DNA of 63,460 nucleotides, counting the filler, from Folioceros fuciformis (lineage: Eukaryota): NCBI GenBank assembly GCA_049999805.1. It is 9 parts of 9 records of this genome, joined end to end, with 100 filler letters (N's around TTAATTAATTAA, not from the genome) between each part and the next. Parts side by side here need not be neighbours in the genome. Positions count along the whole stretch, not along the records: positions 21,288 to 35,018 come from JBNGIO010003445.1; 8 more parts are not named here. The stretch is one strand, 5' to 3'. Position 1 is the stretch's first letter. Every line of letters starts with the position of its first letter. Positions 6,362-55,529 of the stretch are shown here, one piece after another. The position numbers and the translations under genes were made by a program. The notes beneath the pieces were generated by a model that did no database searches, was not told the origin of the DNA, and saw only the letters and a list, made by a program, of their open reading frames with translations.

Positions 6362-6399
6362 ATAGGTTGAAGCATCCTTGACTAGTACGCTGGTTAACG

Positions 6400-21187: not shown

Positions 21188-21590
21188 NNNNNNNNNNNNN
21201 NNNNNNNNNNNNNNNNNNNNNNNNNNNNNNNTTAATTAATTAANNNNNNNNNNNNNNNNNNNNNNNNNNNNNNNNNNNNNNNNNNNNCCCCGCCTGCACA
21301 TTCGGCCTGCTCCTCATATTTCACTCCGCTTTCTGCCTACGGTCTCCCCGTGCGCGGATCGCTTCGTGGATGGAGGACTGGAGCGCTCTGGAAACGGCTG
21401 CTTGAGGGTTGCGGAGAGTGCGGGGTCTGGGAGAGTGTGTGGAAGTGGAGAAGCGCTGGCGAGGGAGGTGGTGGTTTGAACGTTTGAGCTCGGGGTTGGA
21501 TCTTTTTCTTGGAGCTGGCCTGGCGGGAAGTAAGGTCCGGGGAAGGGAGTTTTGCACTCACGTGCTCGAGTATGAAGCTCCCTCTTCAAC

Positions 21591-25865: not shown

Positions 25866-27369
25866 GCTTGCAGCTGCAGTTATGGCCCTGCAGCGTCGAG
25901 TTCCTCGCTCCGCACAGCAGGGCAAGCGGCTTTGCCAAGAAGTGCAAGCGTGCTGCTTGCCAGTGAGGAGTAATTGCACCAGGCCGGGCCATATGTATGT
26001 ATCTACAGTACGTACTGCTCCAGACTCCATGGCTGGCCAGAATCTCCAGATCTGCAGGTCAAATGCAACGACTGGGAGCCAGCGCCGATGCCCCGTCCAA
26101 TTGCATGGAACGACGACAAGCTTAAGACACAACTTGCTTGCTTCGTCGGCTGGCGCGGGCTTCCATGGATTCCCGCCTTTTGGCGAGCTGCAGGCAGTAC
26201 TCCATTGAAATGTAATTGCGCCAAGTCGGGGCGCGCGCGCCGCAGGCCCCAGGCTCTCATGATCTGATCCTCATCTTGCTGGTTGGTGGATTGATTGCTT
26301 TGTGCACATTCCACCTTCCCGATGTCGTTGGCCTTTGCGGCCTCCAATCCGTGCCACCAGCATCTCGCCGGCTTCCCCGTCCTGCGAGCATGGGATGGCT
26401 CTCCCATATCCAGAATCGCAAGTCACATCTTCCCTTCACCTCAAGGCAACCTGGAGTTTTCAGGTCTACATACATCCATATGTACTAGGTACGTACCAGT
26501 TGTTCTTCTGTCTTGCATTGAATGGCTCCAACACCAGGATTCCGATTCCATGTCGGGTAGTTTATGACAACGTGGGCTTTTTTCTCGTTATCGGGGACGG
26601 ATTTTTCTATTGACGAGCAAACCGGCCCAACCGGAACACAGCCCACCACACGCCTCAACTTACTTATTTATGCTCTTATTATTTGCTCAAAAGTTTATAT
26701 ATAAAAGTTACAAACAGATATAAGTCTCACTTCTGAATATCTAGATTTATTAACTGCTCTATAAAAGTATTCATTCGAAGGTATGTCTGAAGGTCAGAAT
26801 GGTCCCATTTTGCATGTAGCGAGAGTTGCAGCCCATTCGATAACTTTTCAATAAGAGGTTCCAAACGTGGTTCATGATGAATATACTTTGACGCTAACTT
26901 CAGCAAACTCTTCCTTGTGAAGATATTGGGTCTTAGGTTCAAATTGGTTAAATACTTCTTCTATTTCTCCCAATGTCGATTGGTGCGTTCAATATCTGGC
27001 ACATATGGCTTTCCCATCTACGACCCTTCAATCAATACACACAAAGAGGATTCAATGCGCGCATACAACAAGCAAAGTTTGATATATTACCTAATCCAAC
27101 ACAAAGCATCTTGATCTTCTAGTCAGATCCAAAACCAAGTCAAAAGAAACACAAAATATAGATCAAAGAGGAAAAAAGGATTGATCAAAACAGAACAAAA
27201 CGCACCACTTGTTCAATCACGCAAGGTGATGCGGTGAGCAAGGTGCTTCTCACGGTGATGGTTTGGAGAGACACACAAGAGACATGATTCTTCTTTACTA
27301 TAGGACATTGGATTCTTTCTTTTGTACTCTAAGTTCTTAGATACCAATCTCAAGATGGGTTCACTCCAT

Positions 27370-28002
27370 TGTAGTGAGAGAAAGCCACCACACATGGACA
27401 AGCAAGGACTCTGGCCAAAGGAGAATGCATGAGACCGATGAGTGCAATTCGCCGTAGTGAGAAAAAGCCACCACACACGGGCAAGCAAGGACTCCGATCA
27501 AAGGAGAATGCATGAGACCTTTCACAAAATGGTCCTACTATTGCAAGAAGCTTCCATGCAGCGAATGTTTGACACAAAGTGGTAGTCATGGTTGGCTGAA
27601 GTAGAGTAGACGAGTAGACTCATGGAACGAAAANNNNNNNNNNACACACATTCTATTGGTACATATTCACTTGTTACAAGGACAAGAGCAGTAGATAGAT
27701 CTGATTGAAGTTCATGAGAGGAGGACACCGTCGGTCCTACTATTGCAACAAGCTTCCATGGAAAGAATGTCTGACACAAAGTGGTAGTCATGGTTGGCTG
27801 AAGTAGAGTAGACGAGTAAACTCATGGAATGAGAAGCCCCAAAATCTAGGTACACACATTCTATTGGTACATGTCTACTTGTTACAAGGACAAGAGCAGT
27901 AGATAGATCTTATTGAAGTTCATGAGAGGAGGACACCGTCTAATTTGTCCCTGTTACATAGCTGGAGATGGAGCCCAATTACATAGTTGGAGATGGAGCC
28001 CA
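27370..28002. repeat. Cluster of direct tandem duplications (~81-bp x2, ~200-bp x2, 25-bp x2) in AT-richer DNA
   Basis: GTAGTGAGA..GAGAATGCATGAGACC twice (27370-27518); GGTCCTACTATTGCAA..GGACACCGTC twice (27531-27940); TTACATAGCTGGAGATGGAGCCCAA twice (27953-28002). Confidence 0.85.
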
Positions 28003-29362
28003 ATGGCATGAGAGGTCGTCGTAAGTATCTTGAACACTTTCAATTTCCTTGCTTGTAATATATAGCACCGTGGTACATAGAAAGAATGAACTTGGTACTT
28101 ACAAAGGATGAACATGGTGGGCAGGATGAACATGGATGGATGGATGCGCTTTGAGCTGTGGACAAACGGTGGTCTTGTAGGTGTGATTGGTATTCTATTG
28201 AGAATATATAGCGCTTTTGATAAGTGTATTATGTGGATACGTAGATAAGCAGTAGGAGCAGCAGGAGGAGGAGGGTCGGGAGAGAAATGAGTTACGCGTA
28301 TACGGTTGAGTTGAGTAGGACGGTACGTGAAAGGGTTGCCTGCCCTATGTATCTCGTTTGCTCCATTTCAGTCTGAATCTTGCCGTGTTCTGTTTCATTG
28401 GAATCCTCTCGTCGCTTCTCTGGCTCGGTCCAGATCACTGTCTGTGTGGACTTTTGAGGATTCAGCGTGTCACTTGTTTTGGAAGGCATTGCGTGGGATC
28501 CCGGTCCTCGTGAGGATTTGTGTGATCGGGTGAGTGAAGATGTGAGCAAGAGGCACGGGCCCCTCCCCTGATGAGAAAGCGGTTTGAGGACCACAGATGC
28601 TGTTGCGAGGCGAAGGTGGTACGGACGGTTTGGGTCTGTACAGCATGAGCAGAGAATTTCTGGATTCTGTAGTAGCCGGATGGTAGGCCTCGCCTCTGGT
28701 GCAGTTGCACCAGGGAAGCTGGCATGGCGTGGTGGATCTCCTGAAGGCGGCTCCAGGTAAGGTAGCGTTTGTGTTCGACGAAATTGGTGAACCGGTGTCT
28801 GCCGAGGGAGTAGAATTGGGAAGGAACCGGAGAGAGGCTGCGTGCTTGGGGCATTGTAGAGTGCACTAGTCTATCCAGCTCACGAGATTTCGATGCGAGT
28901 GGCACTTGAGGAAGGTTGGAGGGTCTGTTCGGGAGCCAGAAATCTTCTTGTGCGGACAGGGGTTTCTGGCTGGGCTGGAGGCCATGGAATTTTGTGGAAT
29001 TTTGGACTCCAAGTGCTTGACGAACAGAACTTTCTTGCTTCTCGTTGCGGCAGAATTCTACACTGCGGTTGCGAAGTTCACGGCCAAGGTCTGCCGGACG
29101 ATCTGCGTGTAGAGTGAAAGCGGGTGTTCGAGGGGCTCGGTGAGAGTGAGGGGAGGACGATGGTGGACGGTCCAGAAGGCTACCGCAAGGGGGACGAGGA
29201 CGCGCAGAGGTTGCAGCGTGAGCTCTACGGTCTGGTGTAGGAAACCGTGCTCCCACAGGTAGCGTGGAGAGGAAGGAATAGCGGGGGGATGAGACGGGGG
29301 TGGGAAGTGAGACTCGTGGTTGCGGATCGTTTGCAGCTGAGGCAACGGCAGCAGCCGTAGCA

Positions 29363-32300
29363 ATGATCGACGAGAGTGGTATGAGGAGGGCCAGCAGTGA
29401 GAGAGGGGTTTCTAGTTTGGATTCCCCTCCGAATGAAGGGGCTAAGCAGACGAGTGAAGTGCAAGATGATGAGGAGGAGGATATGGAAGATGATGGAGAT
29501 GCAGCTGACGATGAGGGGGCGAAAGCTGCAGACTCTCCAGGGCTCAGCGAGACGAAGAATGCAGCTCTGCTCGCCAAGCTTGAGCAGCATAAGCTCAAGA
29601 AGAAAAGTCCTTGTCCAGATGTGCCTCTCTGCAGGCTCCGCAGCATGCAGATTGTAAGGCCAATTTTGAAGCAGGAAGATGTGAATGAGGTGGCTTCAAG
29701 GTTTGCTTCTTCAGGCTACCGTCGGCAAGCATGGCCCTTCTGGGTCTCTGTGATTGGGGAAGATCTGAGGGGAGCAGGGCCTTTGGAGCCAGAGAAGGGC
29801 GATCAGTGGGACGATTGCTGGGCAGAGGTGGATGCCAAATTCCAAGAGGAGCTCAGGCAAGACGCAGAGTGGAGTTTTTTGCAGGGAAAGATGCTCTGGG
29901 TTTGGGATGGAAATCACAGGCTGCAAGGCTGGCTTGAGGTGATCAGAACTCTGCACCCCAATGATCTGGATTGGCATGTTCGTGTGAAGGTGGAGGTACT
30001 AGATGTAAATGAGAGTAATCGCATGCAGATTCTCCAAGCAGCTCATGGGCTGAACGAGTAAGCATCTTGCACGGCCGTCGTTATCTGAGCAGCAGTGGCC
30101 AGGTCCTGAGATGGAGAGGCAATTTGTTAGAGCTTATCAGAACCTCTTTGTCCTAGGCACGCCTAAAACTTCTCTTGTGTTTCCATGTTACGTCAAAGAG
30201 TAATTCTGAAGAATCTATTGTACTGGCTGTCGTGAGCAGGTTCATCGGATCTGGGCACGTACAGACGAATGCCTTGCATGAGATCTACTATGTTCAAAAG
30301 GTGGGTCTTGGACCTCTGGAACAATATGCATCTCGCCTCTCCGCCAAAGACCTGCAAGAATGCCAAAAGAAACTCCCACCTGACCAAGGAGGAACGTGGT
30401 ATTGTCTCACGTTGAATTCTCTGGTTGACATCCTAGCTGCAAATGACGTAATTGCAGAATCACACAAGGCTGCCGTGCGTTATGACAAATCGACTCCAGC
30501 ATGCAGTCAATCGGAGAGAAGTAGGGCCGAAGCCATAGAAAAGGCTGTAGCAAGTGTCCGGAAGAAGACAGGCAGTCGGCTTCTGAAATTGCTGCCTGTA
30601 GCAGATCCTCGGCTTGGTGAGGAGTGGCTGCAGGCCATCAAAGAGGGAGCGGGAAAGGGGATCTTGAAGGGGGGAGGTAAATGTAACTATAAGCTGGGAT
30701 CGGAAAAGCTTTATCACATTGCTGTGGCCAAGGTGCCGGCACATGCTAAGACTGAGTGGGTTAGGCTTGGTACAGGGGATGAAGCTGAGAGACTGAGAAG
30801 AGGTTATCCAAAGCCAGTTCCCACGGAAATAGACTTCATAGAGTGGGTTGGGAGAGAGACATGGTGGTGGCAAGTGGAAGATCAGGCAGCCAGACTTGTG
30901 GCAGAGTTTGAAAACCAAGAGGTGGGGCCATTGGTAAAGCTGGCTGTGGGAACCACTGCAGCTCAGCCTCTTGGTCAGTGGTTGGAGGGCTGGAAGTGCA
31001 AATACTACAAATTTTTATTTGGGGAGCAGCTGAAGCGTGCAGACAAAAAGGCTTCTCTCAGTCAGCAGGAAGGTGGAGCTTTGGCAGCCAAGCGGATAGC
31101 ATTCAGATATGTGAAGTATCTGTTGGATAACGGATTTGCGGACCGGGAACCAGTTGGCCTTGCAGAGTTCAGGTCGGATGACTCAGAGCTAACCATGTAT
31201 GATGGTAATCAACGCCAAATCATGACATTGTGGGAGGCAGAGAATTGCCCTTGGTGGCTAGATATGTCCAAGCCTCCTGAGGAAGAGAAGCACCTGTTTG
31301 AAGACCACAAGGCGGGACACCTGAGAGTCGCTTCCAGTGAAAGGACTCGAGAGGAGAAGGAAGTCGCAGTGCAAGCTGCGAAGGAGGCTGCTGCAAAAGC
31401 TGAGGCAAGACGGATGCAGGAGTTGGGGCCTGTGAAGAACCTTAAGCGCAAGGCACAGAGACGGAAAAGAGAACATTTTGAAAAGGTAGAGGGTTCTCAA
31501 GGGGAGCAGTCAGATAGCAGCCAGATTCGCAAGAGGAGGAAGCCTGCTAGAACAGTGAAGGTTCAGACACACGTGGCCAGGGAAGCTGGAGAAGCAGTTC
31601 CACAAGATGGAGGAGAGGGTTGGATGCAAACCAGTAAGGGGCATAGGTCTTGGGCAAATTTGTCGAGACAGGCCGACTCCATGTGCCGCAATCTTCATTT
31701 ACCTCAGGAACTTCCTGGGAAACGTGTGGTTGCCGAAGTGGTTTGTGCTGCAGTGGATTATGTTGAGCTTGCGACACAGCTGGAGCAGCACCAACGGGTG
31801 AAGGCTGCAAGAATTCAAGCGGAGAATAGGGGTGAAAAGGCTGTTGGGAGCAGCAATCAGTCGGCCATGGAGGTGCCACTGCCTGCAGTATGGTTCGAGT
31901 TGGTCCATTTTCTCACTAGAAATGCAGGAGGCAGAGTTCCCACGTGCGGGGGTATCCAGAGGAAGTGGGCAGCTGAGATGGTGCTCTGCGACGTCCCAAC
32001 CGGACATCCTGTTCCTGGCTGCTCTGCCGACCTCGCTACGGTGCCCTCCTGGAACAAGTTCTCGCATGACCAGATTCCAAGGTGCATTCAGCTGGCAAGA
32101 GCAATACTGAGCGATAACGGCTGTTTGATCATGGTAGCTCAGTCCACTGTGGACACCTGTGTTGATATACATCGGCATGTGCAATCGAACAAAATGAAAA
32201 TTGCCAAGACATGGACAGTAATACAGGAGCAACCTTTGGATCACTATCAGGGACAAGAGAAAAAAACATGCATGGTGCATTGCGTGGTGAGGAAGGACTG

Positions 32301-32898
32301 CAAGTTTGCTTTCAAGCAACTCATCCGCCCTATGGACCCTGATTGTGATCCCGTTACAACGGATGTCTTAAGAAGTTTGGTGCCTCCGTGGGGCTACACC
32401 AAGAGGAGAGAAATAGGCGGAGCACCACGATTCTTGTGGCGAGGAGGCAGAGAGAAGGCTCAATCTTTGTGGCAGCAACTGATCGAGTGTTGCACATTGG
32501 AGGGAGACCGTATTGTTGACTTCACAGCAGGAACAGGCAAGCCTACAGGGCAGTCGAACTCCGTAATGTTGCAGTTAAGGAGAGCAGCTTTCTCACATTT
32601 CTTTCTTTTTCTGGTGCAGGAGGGGCCATGATCGGTGCAGAGATCAGCGGTCGACATCTGTTCGCTATGGAGCGTGATGAAGAGTTAGTGCATGAAGTAC
32701 TATTTCACTTACAGCGACGGCCACAGGAAATGCTGCCTGGTCCCTCTTCCCCATCTTCTGGTTCAGAGGTGTCAAGGCCGTATGTTTTGGATCCTTCTGT
32801 AAGAGAAGTCGCAAACTGCAACCCAAGTTCTCATCATAATCTATGCAGAATCCGCCTCTCCTCTCATACCTGTTCCTTTTTCCATACAGTTTTTCTGA
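29363..32898 (+). CDS. ParB/Srx-like domain fused to a beta-class amino-(N6A/N4C) DNA methyltransferase-like domain, ~1,050 aa (exons 29363-30057, 30240-32536, 32620-~32798; last exon uncertain)
   Basis: ParB-like: VRP..EDVNEVASRF..GY..PFWV..LWVWDGNHRLQGW (DGNHR 29906-29920). MTase: MVLCDVPTG (motif IV position, 31990-32001), REKAQSLWQQLIECCTLEGDRIVDFTAGTG|GAMIGAEISGRHLFAMERD (motifs X-I-II). Basic NLS-like KRKAQRRKR and RKRRKP. Confidence 0.8.
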
Positions 32899-33250
32899 AG
32901 CGGGGAGACTGAAGAATGCACGGAACCATGGACATCTGTTTTGACACCACATGGCACCTTGTATATAGCACAAATTCAATCCTTCTATTCTTGCGCAAAG
33001 CCAAGAGGTGTCAATACCCCAAGCCCATCAAAGGCCTTGGCTTGGTGTCGTTCCTGCCAAGGTGGCCCTGTCCCAGAGCATGTCGGATCAGAGGATCCAC
33101 TGGGGCATAGGCACGTTGACAACAGCTTGTCCAGCCTTCGGAGGAGGCAGGGGTCTGTGTTCTCGATTTAGTTCGCTATCGACACTGTGTGAAAGAGGGC
33201 TGGGACAGCGCTGAAACGAAGTTGCTGGACACAACACACTTAAAGATGTA

Positions 33251-34182
33251 TCATCTTGGAGTGACCCGTCGTCGTGGTCTCAGTGTCTCCCGTCTTAAGA
33301 ATTCTTTCTCTAAATCATTGAGCGGCCGTTGCGTACCATCCGGCAAAGCTATAAAGCGCCTTCCTCCCCCATGCTTTCCTCGTTTCCCCCCTGACCCAAG
33401 CTCCTCCACGACATAACTCCACCCTTCCGCCGGCCTCCGTCGCGACAGCATGTTGGTCTTCACAACTCCCGAAATCTGCAACCAAAACCGGGCATTCTCA
33501 GTCTACGTGCCAAACACCAAACACATGGCTCCTGACTCTACGCCAATCCCCTAACAGTACAAACAAAAAACACACTCACAATCTTCTTATTGAAGCGCAT
33601 TCGCTGCTCGAACTCCTCCACCAGCATCTGCTCCACCTTGGACAAACCCGCTCCGTGCTGCTGCTGGTCCCCCCAATCCTGCATAGCACCGTGCCGCTCC
33701 CCTTCCCCGAAATCGTGCGAGCTGGCAGGCCATGGCAACCCAAACGAATCAGCTGCAGCCTTGAACCCCCGAGACACCAGGATCGTTCACGCGCCCACTC
33801 ACCCGTGGATCTCCGCGAACTCCTTCTCCAACGCATCGTCAAGGGGCGCGCCCTTGGCAGCCTCTACCCTCTTCTCCTCTTCCTTGAGCCACAGTATGGC
33901 ATGCACCCGCTGCCTGGACACCCGGAACTCCGCCGCCAGCCTCTCCACAGTGGTCGGCCCCGGGTTGTCCAAGTACGTCCTCCAAATCGTCTCCTTGCTC
34001 TTGTCCGACAAGCAAGCTGCCTTCAAATCGGGCTCAATTCCGCCAAACTTGAAGATCATCGGCTTCTCTCCATATCCATCAGCATCTACCACAATCGATC
34101 GAGATCCCGCTCTCGCTCCGATCGGAACCCTAGCACGCAGCAGCGTGTCGGCCGCTCGAGCCGCGCGCCCGAAACGCAGCAT
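33251..34182 (-). CDS. GCD1: GAMETE CELL DEFECTIVE 1-like mitochondrial ribosomal protein (mS45 family), 3 exons
   Basis: TVERLAAEFRVSRQRVHAILWLKE, EEFEQRMRFNKK, SRRRPAEGWSYVVEELG..GKRG..LPDGTQRPLN. Introns ~33802-33722 and ~33579-33477. Arg-rich presequence. Confidence 0.85.
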
Positions 34183-34515
34183 AGGCGAGGCTGGCTCCTC
34201 TCCGCACGGTGTGCCCAGACTCGCGCGGCTGGAAACTAAGTTAGAGTTAGGATTGGAGTTAGAGTTGGAGCTGGAGAGGGTAGATTCTAGGGCTCCGAGA
34301 CCGAGCTCCTGTCCGTTGGTCCGGACACTGGACTCCCTTCTTCCCCCGCTTTTCTAGGACACTGCTCACGCGTCTCGAGCATATCGAGCCCGTCGCATTC
34401 GTGTGCGCGTCTCATCTTGCCGGTCGCATCGTCTTGCTTGGTGTCTGGTGTCTGCAGTCGAGCTGTCGAGATGGCATTCGAGCTCCGAGCAATTGCAGTG
34501 TGAAAGTTATCGGGC

Positions 34516-35018
34516 ATGGCGAGAGACTCCTTCTCGTCGCCGAAGCGCAGGCTCCCCGTGAGCCCGCGATTATGGCGGGCAGGCGGTTCGCAGCCGAAGC
34601 GTCTGGATTTTTCGAGCGTCGATGCTATCGCGGGATCGAGCAGCTCCTGCGACGAGCTTGAAGATCCGCTCAGGAACGCGCGCAAGAGCAGGCTCAGGCC
34701 CAGGCCCAGGCTGGGTTCGGGTCCGCAATCAGACGAGTCGGACGACGACGTGGTGCTTGTCGAGAGGCCTCTTGCCCAGATCACCAAGAAGGCCAAGGTC
34801 GGACCTCGGGGTCTCCCTGCCGCGGGTGCCGGGGGCCTGCATGCAAGCCATGCCGACCCCGGGCTGCCCTCTCCGTCCAAAATGCTTCCCGGCTATGACG
34901 CTGCCAGGAAAATGCTGCTGGGTTCCAAGCTCAGCTTCGGGTCCAGCAATAGCTGGGAGCGGCAATTTGGCGTTGGGGGAGGGCAGCGGCAGATGTGGAA
35001 GGAGGGGTATGCAGGTGA
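34516..35018 (+). CDS. N-terminal exon of an unidentified protein, truncated by gap
   Basis: ATG-initiated, GC-rich, Ser/Arg-rich ORF divergent from GCD1 (334-bp spacer), ending at a likely donor CAG|GTGA before the Ns. Confidence 0.5.
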
Positions 35019-35918
35019 NNNNNNNNNNNNNNNNNNNNNNNNNNNNNNNNNNNNNNNNNNNNTTAATTAATTAANNNNNNNNNNNNNNNNNNNNNNNNNN
35101 NNNNNNNNNNNNNNNNNNCTCCAAGTAAGGTGTTTTTTTTTAGAGACCGTATACGGTCCGTATACGTATACCCTCCCCCTTGTATTTTATACGGTTTAGA
35201 TACGTATTAATACGTATTAATACGTATTCCGTATACGCACCCCCGTATTCCTTTTCTTTTTATTTTCCTAATTTCCCCTTTCCTATTTTCTTCCCTATTT
35301 TTCTGGATTTAATTCCAGAAATTCCATTTCAACTCCGTTTCACCTGCTTTCTTTTCCCCTTAGTTCAGGGCCTTCCCCAGCACCCTAGGGTCAGNNNNNN
35401 NNNNNNNNNNNNNNNNNNNNNNNNNNNNNNNNNNNNNNNNNNNNNNNNNNNNNNNNNNNNNNNNNNNNNNNNNNNNNNNNNNNNNNNNNNNNNNCTCCTC
35501 CCCTAGAGGCTGGCTCAGCCACCAAGGGTGAACAGCTGCAGGGGAAGACTTAGCGGGCGACCATCCAGCAAGGAAGAGGCGGCGTCCGCAGACCTTTGAA
35601 GATCAGACATCCTCTGAAGTCTCAGGATAGTCCAAGAGGTGGTAGATCCTTGTGGTGGTAGGGCCAGGAGCTCATTGGTGGCAGGTTGTGCTAGAAGTCT
35701 AAATAAGTGGCTGGTGACAGCCGGATAGGCTATTAAAATAATATTTCTCAAGTTAGAGAGAGGTGAAGTCAGAGAGAGAGAGAGGCTCCTATAAGATCAG
35801 GTGAGCCTGTAGGAAGAAGGAGTCATTCACTTTTGGGAGTCAGTCTATCTCTTTGTGAGCTCTTGGAGGTCCTCTCTTCTTGAGCTCTTGTGGTCTGTCC
35901 CTGCTTGGTCTAGGACCT

Positions 35919-36041: not shown

Positions 36042-36538
36042 GGTGTAATGACCAGGGTGAAGGGGCTTGCCCCTAGCTCTTGATTGTAAAGGGTGTGTCT
36101 TCCTCTCGACCTGTCCACTCTTGTTCCTTGCTTGGTCAAGTGTTGTAGGCCGGCTATGTCTCATGGCGTCTGGTAAGGTTGTGGGGAGGAGATACCCAAG
36201 AGGGGAGTGTGTTCCCTTCTTCCTTTTGTTTGGGGTTAGTCTAGTGACTCTTGCCGGGTAGGAGGAGTCCGTAGGGAAGTATACAAGGTAGTGGTGTCGT
36301 TGCTGGTTGCTAGTAGTTGCTGGTGTTGGTGCTGGAGCGAGAGAGTGAGTGAAGTGAGTGAAGGAAGACGCAGATCTGAGAGGTTAGAGTCGTTGTAGTG
36401 ACTGGAGTGAGNNNNNNNNNNNNNNNNNNNNNNNNNNNNNNNNNNNNNNNNNNNNTTAATTAATTAANNNNNNNNNNNNNNNNNNNNNNNNNNNNNNNNN
36501 NNNNNNNNNNNGAAAGACATAATTGGCATGTCTACTCC

Positions 36539-37812: not shown

Positions 37813-38150
37813 TTATTTGGCTTCACTGCATAATTCTTTGATGGAGTTGGGATGCGACTGACAATCCATCAGAAATTCTAGCTTTATTATAAATAGGGAT
37901 CCTTTCTATAGGACATCAATCCCTACGATTGTGGCTATAGTTACTAGCCATGGCTACCAGAAAATTTCTTGAATTTTAAAATGCAGAAACTCTACGTTGT
38001 TTGTTTTCTTTATTTGATATTTGACATATAATTTTGCCAGCCAGGCAGCTNNNNNNNNNNNNNNNNNNNNNNNNNNNNNNNNNNNNNNNNNNNNTTAATT
38101 AATTAANNNNNNNNNNNNNNNNNNNNNNNNNNNNNNNNNNNNNNNNNNNN

Positions 38151-39918: not shown

Positions 39919-42900
39919 TCATCGTGCATCCATGGAAGAACTGGAGCCCCCCAAAAAGTAGTCGTTTGCAAAAGTGGTCCCAACTTCCCACGACGGGGTG
40001 GAAGACGTCGCCAGGGTCATGAGGGCCACCACCACTACCCGCATTGTGGGTCTCAGTTCTGGAACGTCCTTGGTGCACATTCCTGCCAGTTGGGCCATCT
40101 GTGATCCACCACAGGTCAGCCCGAGTCAGCTCCCTTACACTTTTTGCTGCAGAAACCAATACACTTGCTGCAGACACCAATACACTTGCTGCAGGGGCTA
40201 CCACAAGGGCTCACCTTCCACGCCGATTCTGGGGGGTAACTGTTGCCCAGGGCGGGGTCCATGACTGTCTTCAACTTCGCCCTCCCGTTTGCATCTTTCA
40301 ATACCTCGTCGAACTGTTGCACACCACCGGGCATGCTGCTCAGTATCGCTCATGCTTGGTACCAAGTGGCAAAAGAAAGAGACGACACAGGGAGGGAGCA
40401 TGGTGGCAAACCAAGGTGACAAGGCCTTTCTGCTCCTGTGAGGACGAGGACTTCGAGGACGTCGTGTCCACTCGTACTATAGCTTCCTTGGCAGATAGAA
40501 TCTCGAACAGCACCACACCGAAGGAGTAGACGTCCACCATAGGGGATACATCTCCAAAGCGAGCANNNNNNNNNNNNNNNNNNNNNNNNNNNNNNNNNNN
40601 NNNNNNNNNNNNNNNNNNNNNNNNNNNNNNNNNNNNNNNNNNNNNNNNNNNNNNNNNNNNNNNNNGCCTTACTCTGGGGACATGTAGCCGAATGTTCCTA
40701 CAAGCCTTGTGGGAAGTGTGAGTGACATGCTCCCCAGGCTTGACTCCGTTAACTTTGTCAGACCAAAGTCGGCAACCTGCAAACGCGACAGCATTGGAAC
40801 CACAAGGGTAGTCAGTACAAGTCTGGTAGGGTACAACAGTCACAGCAAGCCTTGACAACTTGCCTCTCACCTTGGCGTGAAAGTATTTATCGATGAGGAT
40901 GTTGCTAGATTTGACATCCCGGTGAATGTACGTCGGATTCGTGTGCTCATGGATGTATTCCAAGCCCCTTGCCGCATCCAGAGCTATTTGCACCCGCTGT
41001 GACCAGGTCAATGTCCCTGTGCATCAGCAACACAACAACGTTTCCAAATCACAACTACGGCCACCAGGATCGACCACATTGGTGAAGCGACAAGCAACAG
41101 AATTGTGCTCTAGTGTGTGCACGACGTAGGATACAAAAGATGGGGGGGAGGGTACAGTGGTGAGCACTCACCTTTCATCGATCCGTGCAAATGTTTGTCC
41201 AGTGTGCCATTCTCAACAAACTCGTAGATAAGAAATAAGGAATCCACTGTACAGTATCCCACCAGCTGAACCTGCAAACCGTTTGCCCAGCGCATGGTTA
41301 ACCCTGAAGGTGAGCGGAGTAGATGAGGATCAGCACATACTGCAAAGCTAAAATCATACCAGGTTACTGTGGTGCACATGTGTAAGCACTTGGAGCTCAG
41401 CCAAGAACTCCCTTGTTGCTTGCAAATTCATGCGTTTCACTGCTAGCTTCTGGAAGAGTCAAAAAACAGGGAATCAGCAAAAACGGAGCCCATGTGTATT
41501 GCTGTTACAAACGCAAGCAGTAATTAGCAACAACCCACAACTTGAAAAACAAACTACATCCTCACAAACAGAAGGGACAGTGGCCTTTGTGAAGCAGTAG
41601 GTTGCAACGGCAACAAGGAAGCAAGCAACACGCCAACAGTGCCACACCATGACGCTTGATGATGCTGTACGGGTTGCACTCTTCTAGTACCTGGCCTCGT
41701 AGCTCAGCCAAATAGACGGCTCCATACCCACCCTCCCCTATCTTTTTAGCAGCACTGAAATTATTGGTAGCTGCTGCAAGTTCCTCATAAGAAAATTCCA
41801 CAGATTTATAGTCGCCAAATTCTGAAAGCTCCCTTGACCTTAATGGTGGTCCATGTGATCCCGATCTTCCACTTGAGTCTGAGACTCGCGAGTTTGGTCC
41901 TAACAATCCGTCCCAGAAGCATGTTGCGGCAAATCAGATACAGGACGCTGCATTCAGACACTGCATGTCTGGTAACTCAAGATTTTAGTTATAGCACAAG
42001 AGAGCACGTCCTAACCTGATAGCATATGAACATCTGAAGAGTCCGCATGTGCTTCATGCACGTGGTTTACAGGCTTGACCGCACCTCCCAGTGGAAACCA
42101 GCCGCACCAGAAGCAAACCAACAAGACTGCCACAAGCATTACCAACCCAGCTCCTCCAGCAACCGCACCCACTATAATTCCTGTCCTGTAGTTACTTCCC
42201 CCGCTTCGATCTGCAAAAATCAACCACCCACCATGATACATCCATTCAAAAGCAAGAGTTAATCGGTGAAGATCCTTCACTGCTCCCCTCAGCCGATCCC
42301 GCTGCACCATGACAAAGGTTCCTTTGGAAACAGCTGCTGATCCATGTTCTACTTTTCTGCTCAGCTCCATGAGCAATTCCAAACACTATAAGCATCTTGG
42401 CGCCTTCACTCCAACAACCAGTGATCGTAGGAAAAACTGTAGGGGTTGATAAACTTACTGCACACATCCATCAGAACGAATACATCAGGACATCTTGGCT
42501 GAAAAACTGGGCTTGCACCATCAGAGCCAGTAACACCTTCCAGTACAACAGCGCAGCAATCCATGACGAAGTTGATCAGCTATAGCATAAGAGTTACATT
42601 CATGACCAAAACCAACTACATGATAAGGAGCCTACCTGATATATTTTGGAAAATGCTTGCTCTTGTCTGCACAGAGGCGACGATTCCAACAAGCACGTGA
42701 GCAAAGTCTTGAAACCGGAACCACACGAATATGAGATAGAGCCCCATATAGAGTTACATGAAAGTCATACGTCGCTCTGCAATGCGAAGAGTGCAAATCT
42801 TTACAGATCAAAGCACATTACCTGTAGCAGGTATGAACAAAATTGGACTGGCTTGCAAGTTTGACCAGTTAGTTCCTGGATTGAAGAACATTAGGTCGGA

Positions 42901-43446
42901 TTCGGAAACCCCATAGTTTGCGGCAAGAGACGCAATTGTGTCATTATACTTCACAGGATATGTCATGAACAAGCCATAATTCTGGTTTTGCGGACTACCG
43001 CATGAACAGTTCAGCGGAATTGTGACAGCTTGACCAGGCACAATGGAATCCCTATCCGAGATCTTAGTAGCTGCTATGATCCAGTCCACAGTTGTGAGGT
43101 TCTGGAAGCGTTGTGGGCTGTCTGCAATATAGGAAAGGCTGTCGCCTTCCGCTACCACATACGGGAAACGGTAGCTAAGCATTCCATCGGAGCAGCTGCA
43201 GGGAAATGGCACGTTTATGGTCTGGCCACTGGAAACGGTATCTATATTAGGGATGCCTGCATTGTATTCCACAATGAGGTCCGGAGAAATTCCCCCGAAC
43301 CTTGTCCCGATGATATCCAAAGTGGATCCCAGAGTTACCACATAGGAGGCCACGGCTTCGCAGCCTTCCTTGGGCACGCACACGGAATTGGCAGGAACAA
43401 TGTTTCCCATCCAACACCATGTCAGAAGCAGCAGCACAAACAACAT
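39919..43446 (-). CDS. CERK1: LysM receptor-like kinase, CERK1/LYK type (multi-exon)
   Basis: Signal peptide, three LysM modules separated by CSC motifs in one exon, [96 protein letters not shown]. Stop at 39919-39921. Upstream in-frame ATGs exist. Confidence 0.9.
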
Positions 43447-45333
43447 ATCCCGCGAGAACGATGATGATGAGCCTGCCCGAAGACCCACCATCACCCCTGC
43501 CCCGACGCTCCCCCGGTAAGCTGATAACGGGCTCCTGCTCCCTGTGATCCGCATGCAGCCCTGCATCCTGCATCCAGCTTCAGCAGCTGCATCCTCCTAC
43601 CAACGATCCACACCGCGGCTGCCAGCCCTTGTCTTGGTCAGAGGCGTCCGTGGGTGCATACCTTGTCCTTGTCCCTGTCCCTGCTGATGACTAAATCCGG
43701 GAAGACACAAATGTGCCAGAGAGACTCCACCTCGGGGGCACCTGCTACTCCCCTAGCTGGGGGCCCTCTTGTCACCTGCCTGGGCTTTGTTTTGAGGACG
43801 TTTTACTCTGATCTGCATTTACGCCTTGGCTAACCTCCACAGATAACAGCCTCGGTAGGCTCCAACTGGACATGCCCTGTAACAAGGGGCACGCATATGC
43901 ACACAGCACACTGGACTGTTTCTAGTGTGGGCCTCTCTGGCTGCTTGCCCCACAATTTCCTGCGACTCCCTCCACCCAAGAGTCGCGCGCACATTCTCAG
44001 CTGCAAACAAAATTCTTTTCTCTCTCTGCCAGGCTTTCCAGAGGGCAAAGTACACAACAGTAATGGCCATGCCCCTTCCCTAGCGCCCGGGAAGTTACAG
44101 AGTTACCAGCTCCCAGGTGAAGGCCATCATGTCCCACCACCGGGAATCGCTGTGCTGTGCCCACAAACATTGAATCATGAATGACGGGTGTGCGAGAGAA
44201 CTGTGGGTGGGGCTGGGGCTGACGATGACAGTGTGCCAACCGCAAATGCTTTTTGTAATGAATAGGAGCATTTGCAAGGTGCAACAGTTCAACACACATG
44301 GGTCCGATCATAGGCCTTGTGAGCTGGCCGGTGGAGCCTGTTCGCGGAATGGACCTGGAAGGCCTGTAAGCGAAGTGCTGGTGGGGTGTACACATGTTTA
44401 GACGACACACCCTCGATGTGCAACATGTGCTGATGAGTGTTTGTACCGCATCTGGCAGAAGCAGGCCATGAGTCATGACCCCTTTCCTTCCATGAAGCCT
44501 TCGCTGCTGCCGCCCTGACATGCCTGTGCCCTCCCTCTACTGTACTCCCCTCTTTCCTCTATCCGTTGCATCGTCATGCTGTGCTTGGCACTGTCCATGC
44601 CTGCACTTTTCTCTCTCATGCGCTGAGAGTGGTAATGAGATCGGCAGCTGCTCTGCGAATCGTACTCCTCGGCTTTTGTTGCTGTCCTATCCGCCAGATT
44701 TTCCTGCTTCTGCTTATAGCTTGCAGGAATGGAGGCTGCAGAGCGGAGCAGAGCCGGGAAGGGACGGGAAGGGAACGTGAAGTTTCTTTGCCTGCTCGAT
44801 TGCATGTTCTCGCTCTCATCAAGTTGATTGTATCCTGCCACGTTTGCAGTAATCTCCTTACCTTCCGAGACTCTATCTCCGCTGCTAGGTGCCTATACTG
44901 TGCTCGCCCTTCTCTTGCTCCGCTGTCGTACCGTCTCTCCTTTTCCCTCCAAGGGCTCGAGGGAGGCCAAACGGCCGCGCCCGGGTTGGCCTCGGTTTTC
45001 CTTTCTTGCAGTGCGCTGCTGCGTCTCGGCACGCGCTTGTGGGCAGTGACCGGAAGTAGCGTCTGATCAGATCTCGTCTCGCGATCAGTTTGATGGCAGG
45101 GCATGAACGGTATGTAGCCGTTCTTGTGACTGCGAGGTTAGGACAGGCTGGGAGCAGCGCGCACGCAATTGGGCTCCTTGCCTGCACGCGGCAATGGCTT
45201 AATGGTCTGGTTCCGGTTGCTGTCGAGCTCCGCAATCAGGAGACGAGGCAGCAGCCAAAGGAGGTAGTAGCTAGTCTTGTGTGACCAGTGTGCGAGGTGT
45301 GTTGTGTGACGCTGTAGGAAGTTGGGACATCAG

Positions 45334-51748: not shown

Positions 51749-54700
51749 TCAGCTGGCAATCAAACTTTCGTTGAGGACGATCGATGGTAAGCATGACTCT
51801 ACCAGCTCTTGGGGAATAGGGGAGTACTTGGACAGGGACAGGAGCCAGGCAACAGCGTTGGTGACCTCAGTAGGTACATCTTCCTTCTTCTTATTGTAGT
51901 CCCCAAAGCTGGAAGTCACAGACACGTTCTCGATTTGGGTTCTAATGTACTGCCCCAGGTATTGCACATACTCCGTGGCGTGGGAAGGGTGAAGCTGGTG
52001 AAACAAGGTACCTAAACCTACCACCAGGGGACAACAGTCTATTGCTGTCTTTTTCATCCGGCTTGTGAGGGAACCCAGGTGGCTGTCAAGCACATACCTG
52101 GGTAGCAGAGAGATGGTGACCACCAAGAGCAGCAGCGGAGTGTCCTCTGAGGTCGGTGCTGTTAGATACAGCGAGCTCAATGGGCTGTGGACACCGCACA
52201 TCTGTAGCTGCGTGATCAGCTCCTCCACGATCTTCACCTTGCCGTCCCAGAAGCTGCTATCTCCTGCGGCTTCAGAGTCTGTTGCAGGAGCAGATTTCAA
52301 CCTGGAGCTCATAGTCATATCAGCTAGGACAGCCGCATTCATTCCCTCCAAGGCGAAAGAAATGCAGCTGGAATCAACCTTGGACGCAGCACGGATTTGT
52401 GATGCAAGAAGACATCTAAGGAGCTGAATCTGTCCAACGTGTGCCAGACTCTCCACCCAAGAGCTCCAACCTTGAGACGATGCCACGAGGCCAGCAGCCT
52501 CAGCATACACAGCCGGACCTACATCAGGAATTGCCGATGGAGGAGTGAGAGCATCCTTCAGCAGCCGCAACTGCTTCTTCATTCCAGCGTCCAACAAAGT
52601 GGACGAGGGCGCTACACAGGCGAGGCATAGCTGAAGGCGTTTGGTAGCATCGAAGCTGAGCAGACGGTCAAGCCCCATCATTCCGGCAGGTCCCAGGGTG
52701 GCTTGAAGCATGGTGAACATCCGCAGCCCCACAAGTTCTTTGCCCTCTGCATCAAACCACCCACTCATGGGAGCCAAATACATGGAACGCGATGGATGCG
52801 TCAGTTGGACAAGTTTGTGAACCAGCCTTCCCATGAAGTTGAGCGAGTTAGAAGGATCTTTGGCGGGGGCCGGGCAGTTCGGTATGGGGATGGATCTGCT
52901 TTGATACAGACTACCCCATTCTTGATTCTTCCGTTTCAGATACGCTGTGCATTCCTGTTCCAAATTGTAGTTGATGATCCTGGTGAACTCTTCTTGCCAA
53001 ACATGCAACCCATGGATGTGCACATAGTCTTGAAAATACTCCATGCACCGCCGCTGCGATTGCAAAGTCAGTTTCAGCTCTTGGAGCTTTTCCTCCAGTT
53101 CCTCAACCCGCCCTGTAGGAAAAACTAGGTGCGCATTCAGAGCGATGGCGATCTGCTTCACCAGCTGTTTCCTGATGCCGTCCTCCAACAACTGCCTCGG
53201 ATCCAGCTCAATAGAGCCAATAAACGTCTTCTTCATGGACATAATTCCCTGAGTGAAGACGGCAACTCGATTAGTGGCCCTGGCCAGCGCGTAACGCTCC
53301 GTCAGCTGCGCATGATCTCGCAAATTATCTTTCACCAGCCGCGCGGGACAGTCCCGCAGCTGCTGTGTCTGGACAGCTATGATGTCGTTGAGGATGGCAA
53401 ACATGGTCACCGGTATAATCTCCAACACAGCACGCACATACGCGACTACCTCCGACGAATAGTACTCCGACACAGAAAATAAATCCGCGCTTCCACACTG
53501 CGCGATCCGAAGCAGAGGCGTGTCCAGGATGCTCCGCAGCTTGAGAAATAGGCACTGCAGCTTCATGACAGTCAGGGGATTGTCCTGAATCCGCACGTGA
53601 ATCCTCTCCGTAAATGCTCCAACCAATCCCCACGCGTACGCCGCATCCCCCACCACAGAGATGGTTCCCAGCACGCTCTCCTGCAGATTAAGAGTGCGAA
53701 TCATCTCCTGCAGCTGCGTCTTGCTCTCACTCAAGTACTGTTTCGTCTGTAGACTCCCTTCGATCTGGTGAAACTGCTCCACCTCCTTGAGCGCGGCTAC
53801 CATATGCTGGATCTTCCTCCCCGCGCCGTGCTCCTCCGCGTAGTCAAGCAACTGCACCTGTGCAGCCATCTCCGCAAACCACCGCTGCAGGTTCTCGTCT
53901 CTCACCCTCTTCGATACCACCTTAGAGCCGGAAAAAAAATCCGAGAGCTCCAGCATGCAGTCCGCGGCGTGCCCCCTGCACTGCCGCCACCTCACCTCCT
54001 TACCCTGCATCAGATCTCCGTACACCCGCTTCAGTTCGAACTCCAAACTGGCCGTGTTGAGCAGCAATGACAGCAGCACATCCTCTGTCACAGCATTAGC
54101 AGCGCAGCATCCCAACACGGCCTCCCGCAGCTTCCTGCTGCCAGTAGTTCGGTGCAGCAGCAGCCATCGCAGCGTTACATTGCATTCCCGCAAACACAAC
54201 AGCAGCGCGGGAACGTTCTTGAGCACATATTCCTGCGTGAGCACTCCCTCCAGCAGAAACACCTTAAGCTCCCCGAGCAAATTCATCACCTTCGACGCAT
54301 GCGCCTGCGCAACATCCCGGACAGCGGGCAGCGCCAAGGTCGGAGCCAGCGCAGCCCTGGCCGCCTTAAACCTGTCCCATGCCAGGGACAGGTCCATGGT
54401 GAAGCCCAGAAAGATGGGCACCACAAAGGACCCCTTAAAGTACCTGTCCACGATCTCCCGCATCACCCCGACGTCGTTGTGCAGGATCTGCGGGGCCTGA
54501 AAGAGCAGCACCAGCAGAGCCCCAGCTTGGGCTGCCAGGGCGGCTGTGCGGTGCTCCGAGCGCGGGAAGTGGCGCGCCGCGTTGTAGATGTCCCCGCCGC
54601 GGAGCCTCTCGATGGTGGTGAGCACCACGTGGCTCGGGAAGGGAAAGCGCGCCAGGAGCTCTTCTGGCCGGGGCACGGCCAGCATGGTGGACGGGACCGG

Positions 54701-54865
54701 AAGCTGCTGAGGCTGGAGCTGCAGCAAAGCCGCGGCCATGGCTGCCACGCCGGCCACCGGGGCTGCGGCCGGGGCGCGGCAAAGAGAGCACACGGCATCG
54801 AAGTTGCGCGCCTCCCCGCCCTTGGCGCGATAGAAGGCGATAAGGAGGCGCTCCCGGAGGAAGCC
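51749..54865 (-). CDS. WASHC5: WASH complex subunit strumpellin, 5' end lost in gap; visible part intronless (>1,030 aa)
   Basis: RERLLIAFYR, DIYNAARHFPRSEHRTAALAAQA, MREIVDRYF, LKEVEQFHQIE, SVSEYYSSE, IELDPRQLLEDGIRKQLVKQI, EYFQDYVHIHGLHVWQEEFTRIINYNLEQEC. Confidence 0.93.
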   Translation of the reverse strand, partial: GFLRERLLIAFYRAKGGEARNFDAVCSLCRAPAAAPVAGVAAMAAALLQLQPQQLPVPSTMLAVPRPEELLARFPFPSHVVLTTIERLRGGDIYNAARHFPRSEHRTAALAAQAGALLVLLFQAPQILHNDVGVMREIVDRYFKGSFVVPIFLGFTMDLSLAWDRFKAARAALAPTLALPAVRDVAQAHASKVMNLLGELKVFLLEGVLTQEYVLKNVPALLLCLRECNVTLRWLLLHRTTGSRKLREAVLGCCAANAVTEDVLLSLLLNTASLEFELKRVYGDLMQGKEVRWRQCRGHAADCMLELSDFFSGSKVVSKRVRDENLQRWFAEMAAQVQLLDYAEEHGAGRKIQHMVAALKEVEQFHQIEGSLQTKQYLSESKTQLQEMIRTLNLQESVLGTISVVGDAAYAWGLVGAFTERIHVRIQDNPLTVMKLQCLFLKLRSILDTPLLRIAQCGSADLFSVSEYYSSEVVAYVRAVLEIIPVTMFAILNDIIAVQTQQLRDCPARLVKDNLRDHAQLTERYALARATNRVAVFTQGIMSMKKTFIGSIELDPRQLLEDGIRKQLVKQIAIALNAHLVFPTGRVEELEEKLQELKLTLQSQRRCMEYFQDYVHIHGLHVWQEEFTRIINYNLEQECTAYLKRKNQEWGSLYQSRSIPIPNCPAPAKDPSNSLNFMGRLVHKLVQLTHPSRSMYLAPMSGWFDAEGKELVGLRMFTMLQATLGPAGMMGLDRLLSFDATKRLQLCLACVAPSSTLLDAGMKKQLRLLKDALTPPSAIPDVGPAVYAEAAGLVASSQGWSSWVESLAHVGQIQLLRCLLASQIRAASKVDSSCISFALEGMNAAVLADMTMSSRLKSAPATDSEAAGDSSFWDGKVKIVEELITQLQMCGVHSPLSSLYLTAPTSEDTPLLLLVVTISLLPRYVLDSHLGSLTSRMKKTAIDCCPLVVGLGTLFHQLHPSHATEYVQYLGQYIRTQIENVSVTSSFGDYNKKKEDVPTEVTNAVAWLLSLSKYSPIPQELVESCLPSIVLNESLIAS

Positions 54866-55529
54866 TGAGATGCGGTGCTCCAGGANNNNNNNNNNNNNNN
54901 NNNNNNNNNNNNNNNNNNNNNNNNNNNNNTTAATTAATTAANNNNNNNNNNNNNNNNNNNNNNNNNNNNNNNNNNNNNNNNNNNNGCTTTAGAAAGCAGG
55001 CATAGTACTTAAAGCACAATCTGAATGAAAGCTAAATTTTAATTAGAAATTTAAGCTACTTTTCCAAATCAATATAAATAATGGCTGAACAATTAGAGAA
55101 ATCAGATTATGAAGAGTATGGAAGTTTTGATTCTTCTCTTTCTTTCTTTATTTCTTTGTTTCCTTCTTTTCAATCATCTGGCAGACCTGTGGATTGTGGA
55201 TTGCATTGTTGATACAACCTCAACATAGTCTCACAAGTCTTGGAGAAGTAGCAAATTGTTGATTAAGCCTTCATGNNNNNNNNNNNNNNNNNNNNNNNNN
55301 NNNNNNNNNNNNNNNNNNNNNNNNNNNNNNNNNNNNNNNNNNNNNNNNNNNNNNNNNNNNNNNNNNNNNNNNNNNCACCTCTTATGACCACAAGCTCACC
55401 TTCATTAATTGAGGTTCAATTTGCATAGCATGGAAAACGATTGATACTCAATGTGCTAATTTCTGTTTAGTATGACGACATGAGAGTTTATAGGATCGTG
55501 TTCTAATTTCTTCATCTTTATGGATGTAG

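Follow-up and report, generated by a model that had tools for sequence, protein, structure and literature searches.

The stretch of DNA analysed here, referred to as the window, comprises 63,460 nucleotides of Folioceros fuciformis (GenBank assembly GCA_049999805.1) in nine parts joined end to end, and the subject of this work is one gene on its plus strand, at positions 29363-32898, within the part taken from JBNGIO010003445.1. The C-terminal ~260 residues of its product have a beta-class (permuted, PF01555-type) amino-methyltransferase fold, in which motif IV precedes motifs X, I and II; this assignment is established. Judged by its sequence, the gene belongs to an undescribed, intron-bearing eukaryotic family derived from PF01555 enzymes, in which the fold is known, the catalytic loop has been rebuilt and the accessory domains are unexplained, and its product is probably not an ordinary DNA methylase. 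The reading that we favour, and hold to be somewhat probable, is that of a nuclear pseudoenzyme with a PF01555-type fold and a remodelled loop, which would bind S-adenosylmethionine (SAM) and serve as a regulator or scaffold, not as a canonical DNA writer. No report of this plant family was found in the main texts, without supplements, of the open-access and bioRxiv literature searched.

The gene model rests on contigs of four sequencing runs (X1, X3, X4 and X6; Logan contigs, unstranded) aligned over positions 28400-33800. X1 is a DNA run and X3 a second run of the same organism; X4 and X6 come from two related organisms, with about one in ten sampled words in common. The X1 contig is colinear with the region and shows zero differences, whereas the contigs of X3, X4 and X6 skip introns. 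Thus, the latter three are transcript assemblies, a reading taken from the intron-less contigs alone, as no run record states RNA. The first two splice joints are present in X3, X4 and X6, i.e. in three organisms, and absent from X1, while the third (32798>32890) is seen in X3, with a near-identical joint in X6. The second joint was reported at 32533>32617 with four ambiguous letters, and only a placement shifted by +3 yields splice-like ends. On the plus strand, stop-to-stop frames leave three open pieces (29282-30061, 30157-32631 and 32520-32912), and spliced translation gives a coding sequence of 3,180 nt, or 1,059 codons, from an ATG at 29363 to a stop at 32896-32898. The initial annotation of this DNA had proposed an open reading frame of ~1,050 codons with two introns: the frame is real and its boundaries (29363-32898) exact, but there are three introns and 1,059 codons. 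One X6 contig of 6,083 nt carries exons 1, 2 and 3, and the X3 unitigs overlap end to end; therefore, the N- and C-terminal domains belong to one mRNA, and a transcript joining both ends of the protein, which the annotation had called for, does exist. The gene is a spliced, expressed land-plant nuclear gene, as had been proposed, its splicing being directly seen in the contigs.

The assignment of the C-terminal domain is supported by profile, structural and language-model comparisons. A comparison set was built with Escherichia coli YhdJ as the seed, from which 74 related loci in viral contigs and, from these, 43 clean translations (24-98% identity to YhdJ) were obtained; all seven further open frames checked from the comparison locus set belong to PF01555 in Pfam. 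A hidden Markov model (HMM) of the 43 proteins scored 22.3 bits against the spliced protein, while none of 1,000 shuffles reached 10 bits (maximum 6.8). The match consists of two colinear stretches, residues 812-925 on profile positions 36-146 (the motif IV half) and residues 974-1020 on positions 202-248 (motifs X-I-II). When the 11-sequence profile of the plant family was aligned to the 43-sequence profile using hhalign, the same permuted order was recovered over 204 columns, with a probability of 98.8% and an E-value of 1.4e-16. Among the 38 plant relatives described below, four match PF01555 directly (best E 1.9e-7), and 23 of the 30 language-model neighbours of the exon 2 part lie in the PF01555 set. 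An AlphaFold model of exon 2, computed with a 41-row alignment, has a mean predicted local distance difference test score (pLDDT) of 75.3, with the last ~260 residues mostly above 80. The top Foldseek matches of this model are M1.HpyAVI, CcrM, M.BceJIV and M.RsrI (best E 8.7e-6); Foldseek and VIA matches together also include M.MboIIA, M.PvuII and the rotifer enzyme N4CMT, and the fold superposes on solved beta-class enzymes. Together, the HMM, hhalign and Foldseek/VIA results bear out the annotation's beta-class N6A/N4C-type fold with motif IV ahead of motifs X-I-II, and the motif strings that it had quoted are present where it had placed them.

Other searches returned little. Searching the exon pieces against the PDB with phmmer gave chance-level rows only, tblastn against phages gave a single row at E 6, and word-index protein searches gave nothing, a result of low weight since one of them missed its own alignment's members and another covered only 2,086-5,000 aa. 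A search of BFVD returned viral methylases only and no clue to origin.

The catalytic loop is where the family departs from known enzymes. The second proline and the aromatic residue of motif IV of amino-methyltransferases, (D/N/S)PP(Y/F/W/H), position and stack the flipped base, and every amino-methyltransferase known to us uses both. The Folioceros protein has DVPT instead. We therefore tallied the four positions in 21 aligned family sequences. The first is D in 15 of 21. The second is never proline (V in 10, L in 3, I in 3, A in 2, F in 2 and Y in 1), the third is proline in 19, and the fourth is never aromatic (E in 10, D in 5, S in 3, T in 2 and K in 1). The family loop reads D-hydrophobic-P-(E/D/S/T/K)-G-L-P-V-P-G and is followed, ~15 residues on, by P-x-W-N in 21/21. 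As loop and P-x-W-N are kept family-wide, the site shows no decay: its rebuilding came early, and the new form has been preserved ever since. The SAM-binding elements, namely the motif I loop and a glutamate in place of the motif II acid (AMERD, aligned to G-I-E), look intact.

The loss of second proline and aromatic across the family argues against canonical methylation to N6-methyladenine (6mA) or N4-methylcytosine (4mC), and makes doubtful the annotation's suggestion of a 6mA/4mC writer. The Marchantia enzyme MpDN4MT1, by contrast, is described with a TSPPY motif in the available part of its report (bioRxiv 10.1101/2021.02.12.428880), where it is also sperm-specific. We therefore regard it as unlikely that the gene encodes a domesticated, active nuclear 6mA/4mC DNA methyltransferase, whose ParB-type N-terminal domain would bind cytidine, adenosine or guanosine triphosphate (CTP, ATP or GTP) and hold the enzyme on DNA as a clamp, or direct it there, as in phage ParB-methylase fusions. 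The beta-class fold, the motif order, the presence of SAM motifs I and II and a catalytic loop that is constrained and not decaying are all what an active writer would show; a DVPT loop, with neither second proline nor aromatic in any of the 21 sequences, is not. The part of this proposal that concerns the N-terminal domain is taken up below.

Alternatively, the protein could be an active SAM-dependent methyltransferase with a rebuilt loop whose substrate has moved off DNA base amino groups, with RNA, protein side chains and modified bases as candidates. We think this rather improbable. The family-wide retention of the altered loop, the invariant P-x-W-N and the retained motif II are consistent with it, and the acidic residue at the former aromatic position in 15/21 sequences suggests a different, possibly cationic, substrate. 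Enzymes related to the beta-class fold do act on RNA and on protein glutamine, but they carry N/DPP(Y/W/F); we know of no working amino-methyltransferase without the PP-aromatic element, and the remaining domains of the protein match no family and give no clue to a substrate. In terms of activity, we give precedence to a pseudoenzyme or regulator that binds SAM; a re-tooled enzyme acting on another substrate ranks next, and a canonical DNA writer last.

The distribution of the family was determined by an exhaustive HMMER search with exon 2 as the query, which returned 38 cluster representatives at E ≤0.001, six of them at E ≤1e-10, with 21-35% identity. Of the 20 looked up, all 17 that bear a name come from land plants (ferns, a liverwort, a moss and conifers), and the rest are unnamed transcriptome or metagenome proteins. 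At least five family proteins were found in Adiantum capillus-veneris, four in Adiantum nelumboides, three in Riccia sorocarpa, two in Ceratodon purpureus and one each in Taxus chinensis and Cryptomeria japonica. No angiosperm is among the 17 named relatives, which is weak evidence of absence at this sensitivity, and no Marchantia-named protein is among them either. The annotation had spoken of a seed-free plant gene, which suits the relatives in ferns, liverwort and moss but not those in two conifers. On the sequences compared, the family is sparse and fast-diverging, spread over ferns, liverwort, moss and conifers. In relatives P0005, P0026, P0003, P0032 and P0019, the N-terminal, middle and methylase parts are colinear with those of the spliced protein (phmmer), and therefore the three-part architecture is a family trait. 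P0026 (Adiantum capillus-veneris, 1,176 aa) additionally carries an FCP1/NIF phosphatase domain (Pfam E 2.4e-12), either a true fusion or a merged gene model.

Such a distribution raises the question of whether the gene is, or was until recently, carried by a mobile element of low copy number or by an endogenised virus, with a product that serves this carrier and not the host, for example in self-marking or anti-silencing. The patchy spread with multiple divergent copies within single fern and Riccia genomes, the two Ceratodon copies, more than 90% alike on different chromosomes, the many short or partial gene models and the 21-35% identity between lineages would all fit, as would the abundance of retroelement remains in the window and the fact that phages and giant viruses are the typical setting of ParB-methylase fusions and PF01555 methylases in the available text of a ParB-CTPase survey (PMC12704722). 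Evidence from the locus itself makes this quite improbable. A single contig of the X1 DNA run matched the locus at ≥85% likeness, tblastn of the spliced protein found no second gene copy in the window, and on the contig that holds the gene no long repeats, whether direct, terminal or inverted, lie to either side of it. The copy-number check that the annotation had proposed thus has two outcomes: a single X1 contig and no second copy in the window here, but several divergent copies in the fern, Riccia and Ceratodon genomes. Moreover, the gene has three spliceosomal introns, one of them GC-AG, introns are shared between three organisms, and the X6 contig shares the convergent Bot1p-like neighbour.

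Divergence between orthologous contigs points in the same direction. Over 30240-32533 in exon 2 (2,294 nt), X4 and X6 show 143 and 155 substitutions (6.2-6.8%) and 0 gaps. By comparison, a retained stretch of intron 1 has 14 substitutions and 2 gaps in 116 nt (~12%), and the stretch 28869-29940, made up of 5' leader and 578 nt of exon 1 coding sequence, has 126 substitutions and 6 gaps in 1,072 nt (~12%), the leader being more divergent between species than the coding sequence. The exon 1 indels in X6 total 12 bases, so the frame is kept. A coding exon that has no gaps and roughly half the divergence of the retained intron 1 and 5' stretches looks like the pattern of purifying selection on the open frame, and counts against mobile cargo. 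By rough estimate from these substitution densities, the dN/dS ratio may be about 0.3-0.4. This locus behaves as a stable host gene, though the patchy, multi-copy and divergent pattern of the family may reflect a history as mobile cargo.

We then consider the N-terminal domain (residues 83-231), for which the annotation had proposed a ParB/sulfiredoxin (Srx)-like identity. The motif pattern is real and conserved: relatives share P-x-I-P-L-C-R-L ... V-x-x-L-K-x-x-F-x-x-x-G-Y ... F-x-V-S ... W-D-G-N-H-R ... H-x-R-V, with an insert containing K-W-D..W...E-F before the W-D-G-N-H-R element. The ParB/Srx arginine motif is G-x-x-R / DG-x-H-R, which the DGNHR of the Folioceros protein resembles, and this resemblance is one of the points in favour of an active, ParB-guided writer. 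In relatives the element takes the forms DGNHR, DGNRR, EGNHR, DGNHQ and DGNQQ; its last arginine is kept in 4/6 sequences and is replaced by Q in both Riccia proteins compared, which speaks against that proposal. The language-model neighbours of the domain likewise favour ParB: a cluster named ParB/Sulfiredoxin at 0.92, and ParB_N (11% of members), DndB (13%) and DUF6551 clusters at 0.88-0.89, with shared-feature counts of 136-163 that are under the level typical of true family matches. Among 38,880 PHROGs, the top match is a ParB-like partition protein (E 0.022), placed on the DGNHR segment, and the AlphaFold model, at a pLDDT of 50, has the low-confidence order beta-alpha-beta-[insert]-beta-...-beta-alpha; both fit a ParB-type head. 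Against this, no ParB-type family was found for the domain in Pfam (even at E 10), PADLOC, NCBIfam or PDB profile searches.

A direct comparison was made with 94 phage and bacterial ParB N-domains, which include true ParB-methylase fusions with DPPY and represent one ParB subfamily only. The first beta-alpha segment aligned in the expected register using hhalign (P 0.016), and in a variant in which, at the analyst's choice, the 39-residue insert was deleted and three rows without the second half were dropped, the whole N-domain aligned sensibly (P 0.037-0.057). These values lie within the noise: the real score is 17, whereas templates with shuffled columns go as high as 23.3, and 25 of 200 shuffled queries score at least as well as the real one. 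PF02195 was detected in none of four large viral records (0/4). The fold proposed by the annotation was thus not shown, with no profile family, a pLDDT of 50 and hhalign scores in shuffle noise, and a ParB/Srx fold for this domain stands, in our estimation from sequence, at roughly even odds.

Phage and bacterial ParB-methylase fusions provide a close parallel in layout: in them too, a PF01555-type methylase is preceded by a small N-domain that carries a G-x-H/G-R type motif. We found 11 such open frames in bacteria, of 379-574 aa and mostly 430-470 aa, with DPPY, and their N-to-C order, matched by the plant protein, is a further point for the ParB-guided writer. They have neither helical domain nor basic linker, whereas ~550 residues separate N-domain and methylase in the plant protein, and the similarity of the plant N-domain to the fusion ParB domains is not significant (again, 25/200 shuffles). 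The methylase half aligns to that of the bacterial fusions (hhalign, 97.2%, E 3.7e-11), compared with E 1.4e-16 for the stand-alone YhdJ-like enzymes; it is no closer to the sampled ParB-fused than to the stand-alone methylases, which tells against the active writer as proposed, and therefore descent from a ParB-methylase fusion is unsupported by the sequences compared. Given ~550 intervening residues, DVPT in place of DPPY and an unproven ParB part, the protein does not conform to the phage and bacterial fusion type, in which a DPPY-bearing N6_N4_Mtase comes directly after ParB_N in ~400-500 aa. N6_N4 methylase fusions are enriched in phages in the accessible part of the survey cited above (PMC12704722). 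An 87-codon ParB-like frame in the Rac prophage of E. coli K-12 corresponds to a shortened version of a prophage protein of 263 aa (L082 2001-2792; L164-L177), and its alphaproteobacterial and other relatives are full ParB-methylase fusions with DPPY, mostly 430-470 aa.

Between the two end domains lie a helical domain and a basic linker. The middle domain is modelled with helices only and is conserved in relatives; this region of ~355 residues matches no Pfam family, and fold searches barely probed it. The linker that follows is predicted to be disordered and carries two clusters resembling nuclear localisation signals (NLS), KRKAQRRKR and RKRRKPAR; both had been noted by the annotation, and they do lie between the domains. 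By pattern only, they would be assigned NLS function.

The favoured reading, a SAM-binding pseudoenzyme, can be put in mechanistic terms. The protein would consist of an acidic tail and the N-terminal domain, the helical domain, the disordered basic linker, the C-terminal methyltransferase fold and a short C-terminal tail. It would enter the nucleus and bind SAM, and without the second proline and the base-stacking aromatic it would not carry out canonical N6-adenine or N4-cytosine DNA writing. Most likely, it would act on chromatin as a regulatory or scaffold pseudoenzyme, in the way that METTL14 and MTA9 serve active partners, with the N-terminal and helical domains supplying nucleic-acid or partner binding. 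METTL14 and Tetrahymena MTA9 are catalytically inactive, obligate heterodimer partners of MT-A70 enzymes. They belong to the MT-A70 family, not to PF01555, and form obligate heterodimers, whereas an active partner of the plant protein is only conjectural.

Several observations weigh against this reading or the evidence for it. Pfam found no family on the three exon pieces, unlike for PF01555 enzymes, which is explained by intron 2 cutting motif I. The exon 2 model is missing the last three secondary-structure elements of the fold, which are encoded in exon 3. In 8 of the 15 family members that extend as far as the SAM loop, A, S or N replaces its first glycine, and therefore SAM binding may not hold across the whole family. 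The strong retention of the altered loop and of P-x-W-N could just as well be the signature of a functional active site that has been re-tooled. Finally, the family is patchy and multi-copy in some genomes (Adiantum, Riccia, Ceratodon), which also fits a mobile or selfish gene.

Comparison with characterised enzymes helps to place the protein. It shares with PF01555 beta-class enzymes (M.MboIIA, CcrM, M.PvuII, M.RsrI and M1.HpyAVI) a common fold, the circular motif order IV-VIII before X-I-II, the glycine-rich SAM loop and the motif II glutamate. It differs from them in having DVPT instead of DPPY/SPPY and WRGGREK instead of HP-x-x-KP before motif X, in its introns, and in that the domain lies C-terminally in a nuclear-type protein of 1,059 aa that also contains a basic linker and two further domains. 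Among eukaryotic writers, the bdelloid rotifer N4CMT actively writes 4mC and ends in a chromodomain, and is stated in the available part of its description to be without eukaryotic homologues (PMC8885841); the plant protein differs from it, as so described, in its non-canonical motif IV and its accessory domains. MpDN4MT1a/b, compared here by published description and in the part available, are likewise land-plant proteins related to prokaryotic amino-methyltransferases, and the SPPY-type motif described for both eukaryotic 4mC writers is not present in the Folioceros protein. For eukaryotic adenine methylases, the available text of one survey mentions ParB-linked cases in haptophytes, chlorophytes and chytrids only, and few such enzymes in land plants (PMC4738411).

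The coordinates of all features are given in Table 1.

Table 1 Features of the gene and its surroundings, in window positions (aa, amino acid residues; UTR, untranslated region).
Feature	Position	Strand	Basis or detail
5' leader, RNA-covered, ≥960 nt, 10 upstream ATGs, GC content 0.569	28400-29362	+	X3 record 2 colinear over 28400-29940
Coding sequence	29363-30057 + 30240-32536 + 32620-32798 + 32890-32898	+	spliced translation
Coding exon 1 (aa 1-231 and two bases of codon 232): acidic low-complexity head, then conserved N-terminal domain	29363-30057	+	donor GA|GTAAGC; joint 30057>30240 in X3, X4, X6
Conserved N-terminal domain (aa 83-231), ParB/Srx-like candidate	29609-30055	+	conserved in 6-8 plant relatives
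DGNHR (aa 182-186)	29906-29920	+	
Intron 1, 182 nt, GT-AG, phase 2	30058-30239	+	joint in three organisms
Coding exon 2, 2,297 nt (aa 232-998)	30240-32536	+	contig joints, open frame
All-alpha middle domain (aa 243-597)	30271-31335	+	model residues 11-365: pLDDT mostly 84-97, helices only
Disordered basic linker (aa 627-736)	31423-31752	+	pLDDT 27-42, model residues 395-504
NLS-like cluster KRKAQRRKR (aa 634-642)	31444-31470	+	in AlphaFold-disordered stretch
NLS-like cluster RKRRKPAR (aa 662-669)	31528-31551	+	in AlphaFold-disordered stretch
Beta-class amino-methyltransferase-like domain (aa ~728-1031), split by intron 2	31726-32720	+	HMM, hhalign, Foldseek/VIA, language-model neighbours
Motif IV position, DVPT (aa 816-819) replacing (D/N/S)PP(Y/F/W/H)	31990-32001	+	aligned to DPPY of PF01555 profiles
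PSWN (aa 834-837)	32044-32055	+	P, W, N invariant in 21/21 aligned family members
Motif I, DFTAGTGG (aa 992-999), interrupted in codon 998 by intron 2	32518-32624	+	aligned to D-P-F-x-G-S-G-T of PF01555 profiles
Intron 2, 83 nt, GC-AG, phase 1	32537-32619	+	joint in three organisms, four ambiguous letters
Coding exon 3 (aa 998-1057), with motif II AMERD, E1015 at 32670-32672	32620-32798	+	contig joints, alignment
Intron 3, 91 nt, GT-AG, phase 0	32799-32889	+	X3 joint 32798>32890; near-identical in X6
Exon 4, last 9 coding bases (FF*); 3' UTR beyond, overlapping 3' end of convergent gene	32890-32898	+	contigs, translation
Alternative donor	29936-30240	+	joint 29936>30238 (cut +2) in X3 and X4
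417-codon stop-free frame	28462-29715	-	antisense to 5' leader and start of coding sequence
Tandem repeats of 83 nt and ~205 nt	27354-27940		~1.4 kb upstream of start codon
Convergent Bot1p-like gene	33476-34353	-	E 8.2e-8; intron 33476-33579
Ty3-type retroelement	6382-9592	+	gag, reverse transcriptase, RNase H
LysM receptor-kinase-type ectodomain	42811-43596	-	LysM, LysM_RLK, LYK-type LysM1/2/3 models
Strumpellin gene	51749-54937	-	Pfam E 0, profile positions 128-1084

Further observations concern the gene and its immediate surroundings. An alternative donor ~120 nt upstream of the main donor is joined to the same acceptor, at lower depth, in X3 and X4; by frame reading, the resulting transcript would end the protein 13 codons after residue 192, just past DGNHR. 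As the contigs are unstranded, part of the cover of the 5' leader could stem from another transcript. The antisense 417-codon frame is serine-rich and of low complexity, and is probably a composition effect because of the strong GC skew (0.32) in the region. Downstream, the convergent neighbour matches Bot1p, a mitochondrial regulator, and its intron is seen as a CT..AC joint. The 3' ends of the two genes overlap, since transcript contigs run from one into the other, and as the X6 contig continues into the Bot1p-like gene, this neighbourhood is common to the organisms concerned.

The gap-free piece that holds the gene extends from 27644 to 35018. Elsewhere, the window contains N44-TTAATTAATTAA-N44 blocks (100 bases, with a six-frame stop linker) at 21188-21287, 35019-35118, 36412-36511 and 38051-38150, and plain N runs at 2438, 11482, 12059, 27634, 35395, 36818, 40566, 54886, 55276, 59587, 59947, 61294 and 62787. 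Gene order across linkers and N runs is not synteny, because the window is a chain of separate pieces. The Ty3-type retroelement has its gag (with a zinc knuckle), reverse transcriptase and RNase H in consecutive but separate frames, which suggests decay and agrees with the annotation's mention of decayed transposable elements in the window. The strumpellin (WASH complex) gene is one uninterrupted frame of 1,062 codons, whose start is cut by the N block at 54886, and the LysM ectodomain is matched by plant-specific Pfam models. Taken with the named relatives of the methylase-like gene, these genes and the Ty3-type remains indicate a land plant. Rfam gave 0 matches in the window.

What the family may be can be stated at its widest as follows, although we would put this reading among the unlikely ones: a nuclear family of non-flowering land plants, in which an anciently acquired prokaryote- or phage-type methylase with a rebuilt loop was combined with a ParB-like nucleotide-binding head and a novel helical domain to give a SAM-dependent chromatin enzyme of a new kind, whose mark would differ from canonical 6mA or 4mC or would be written with a novel catalytic geometry. 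Eukaryotes rarely have methylases of the PF01555 type, and here a domain derived from them is found in an expressed, intron-bearing gene with relatives across ferns, liverwort, moss and conifers. An active protein would have to be counted as a further possible writer in the contested subject of 6mA and 4mC in plants; an inactive one would clearly exemplify the conversion of a DNA methylase of bacterial type into a pseudoenzyme or reader in a eukaryote. The family additionally provides a test of whether a ParB-type head has been co-opted in eukaryotic nuclei.

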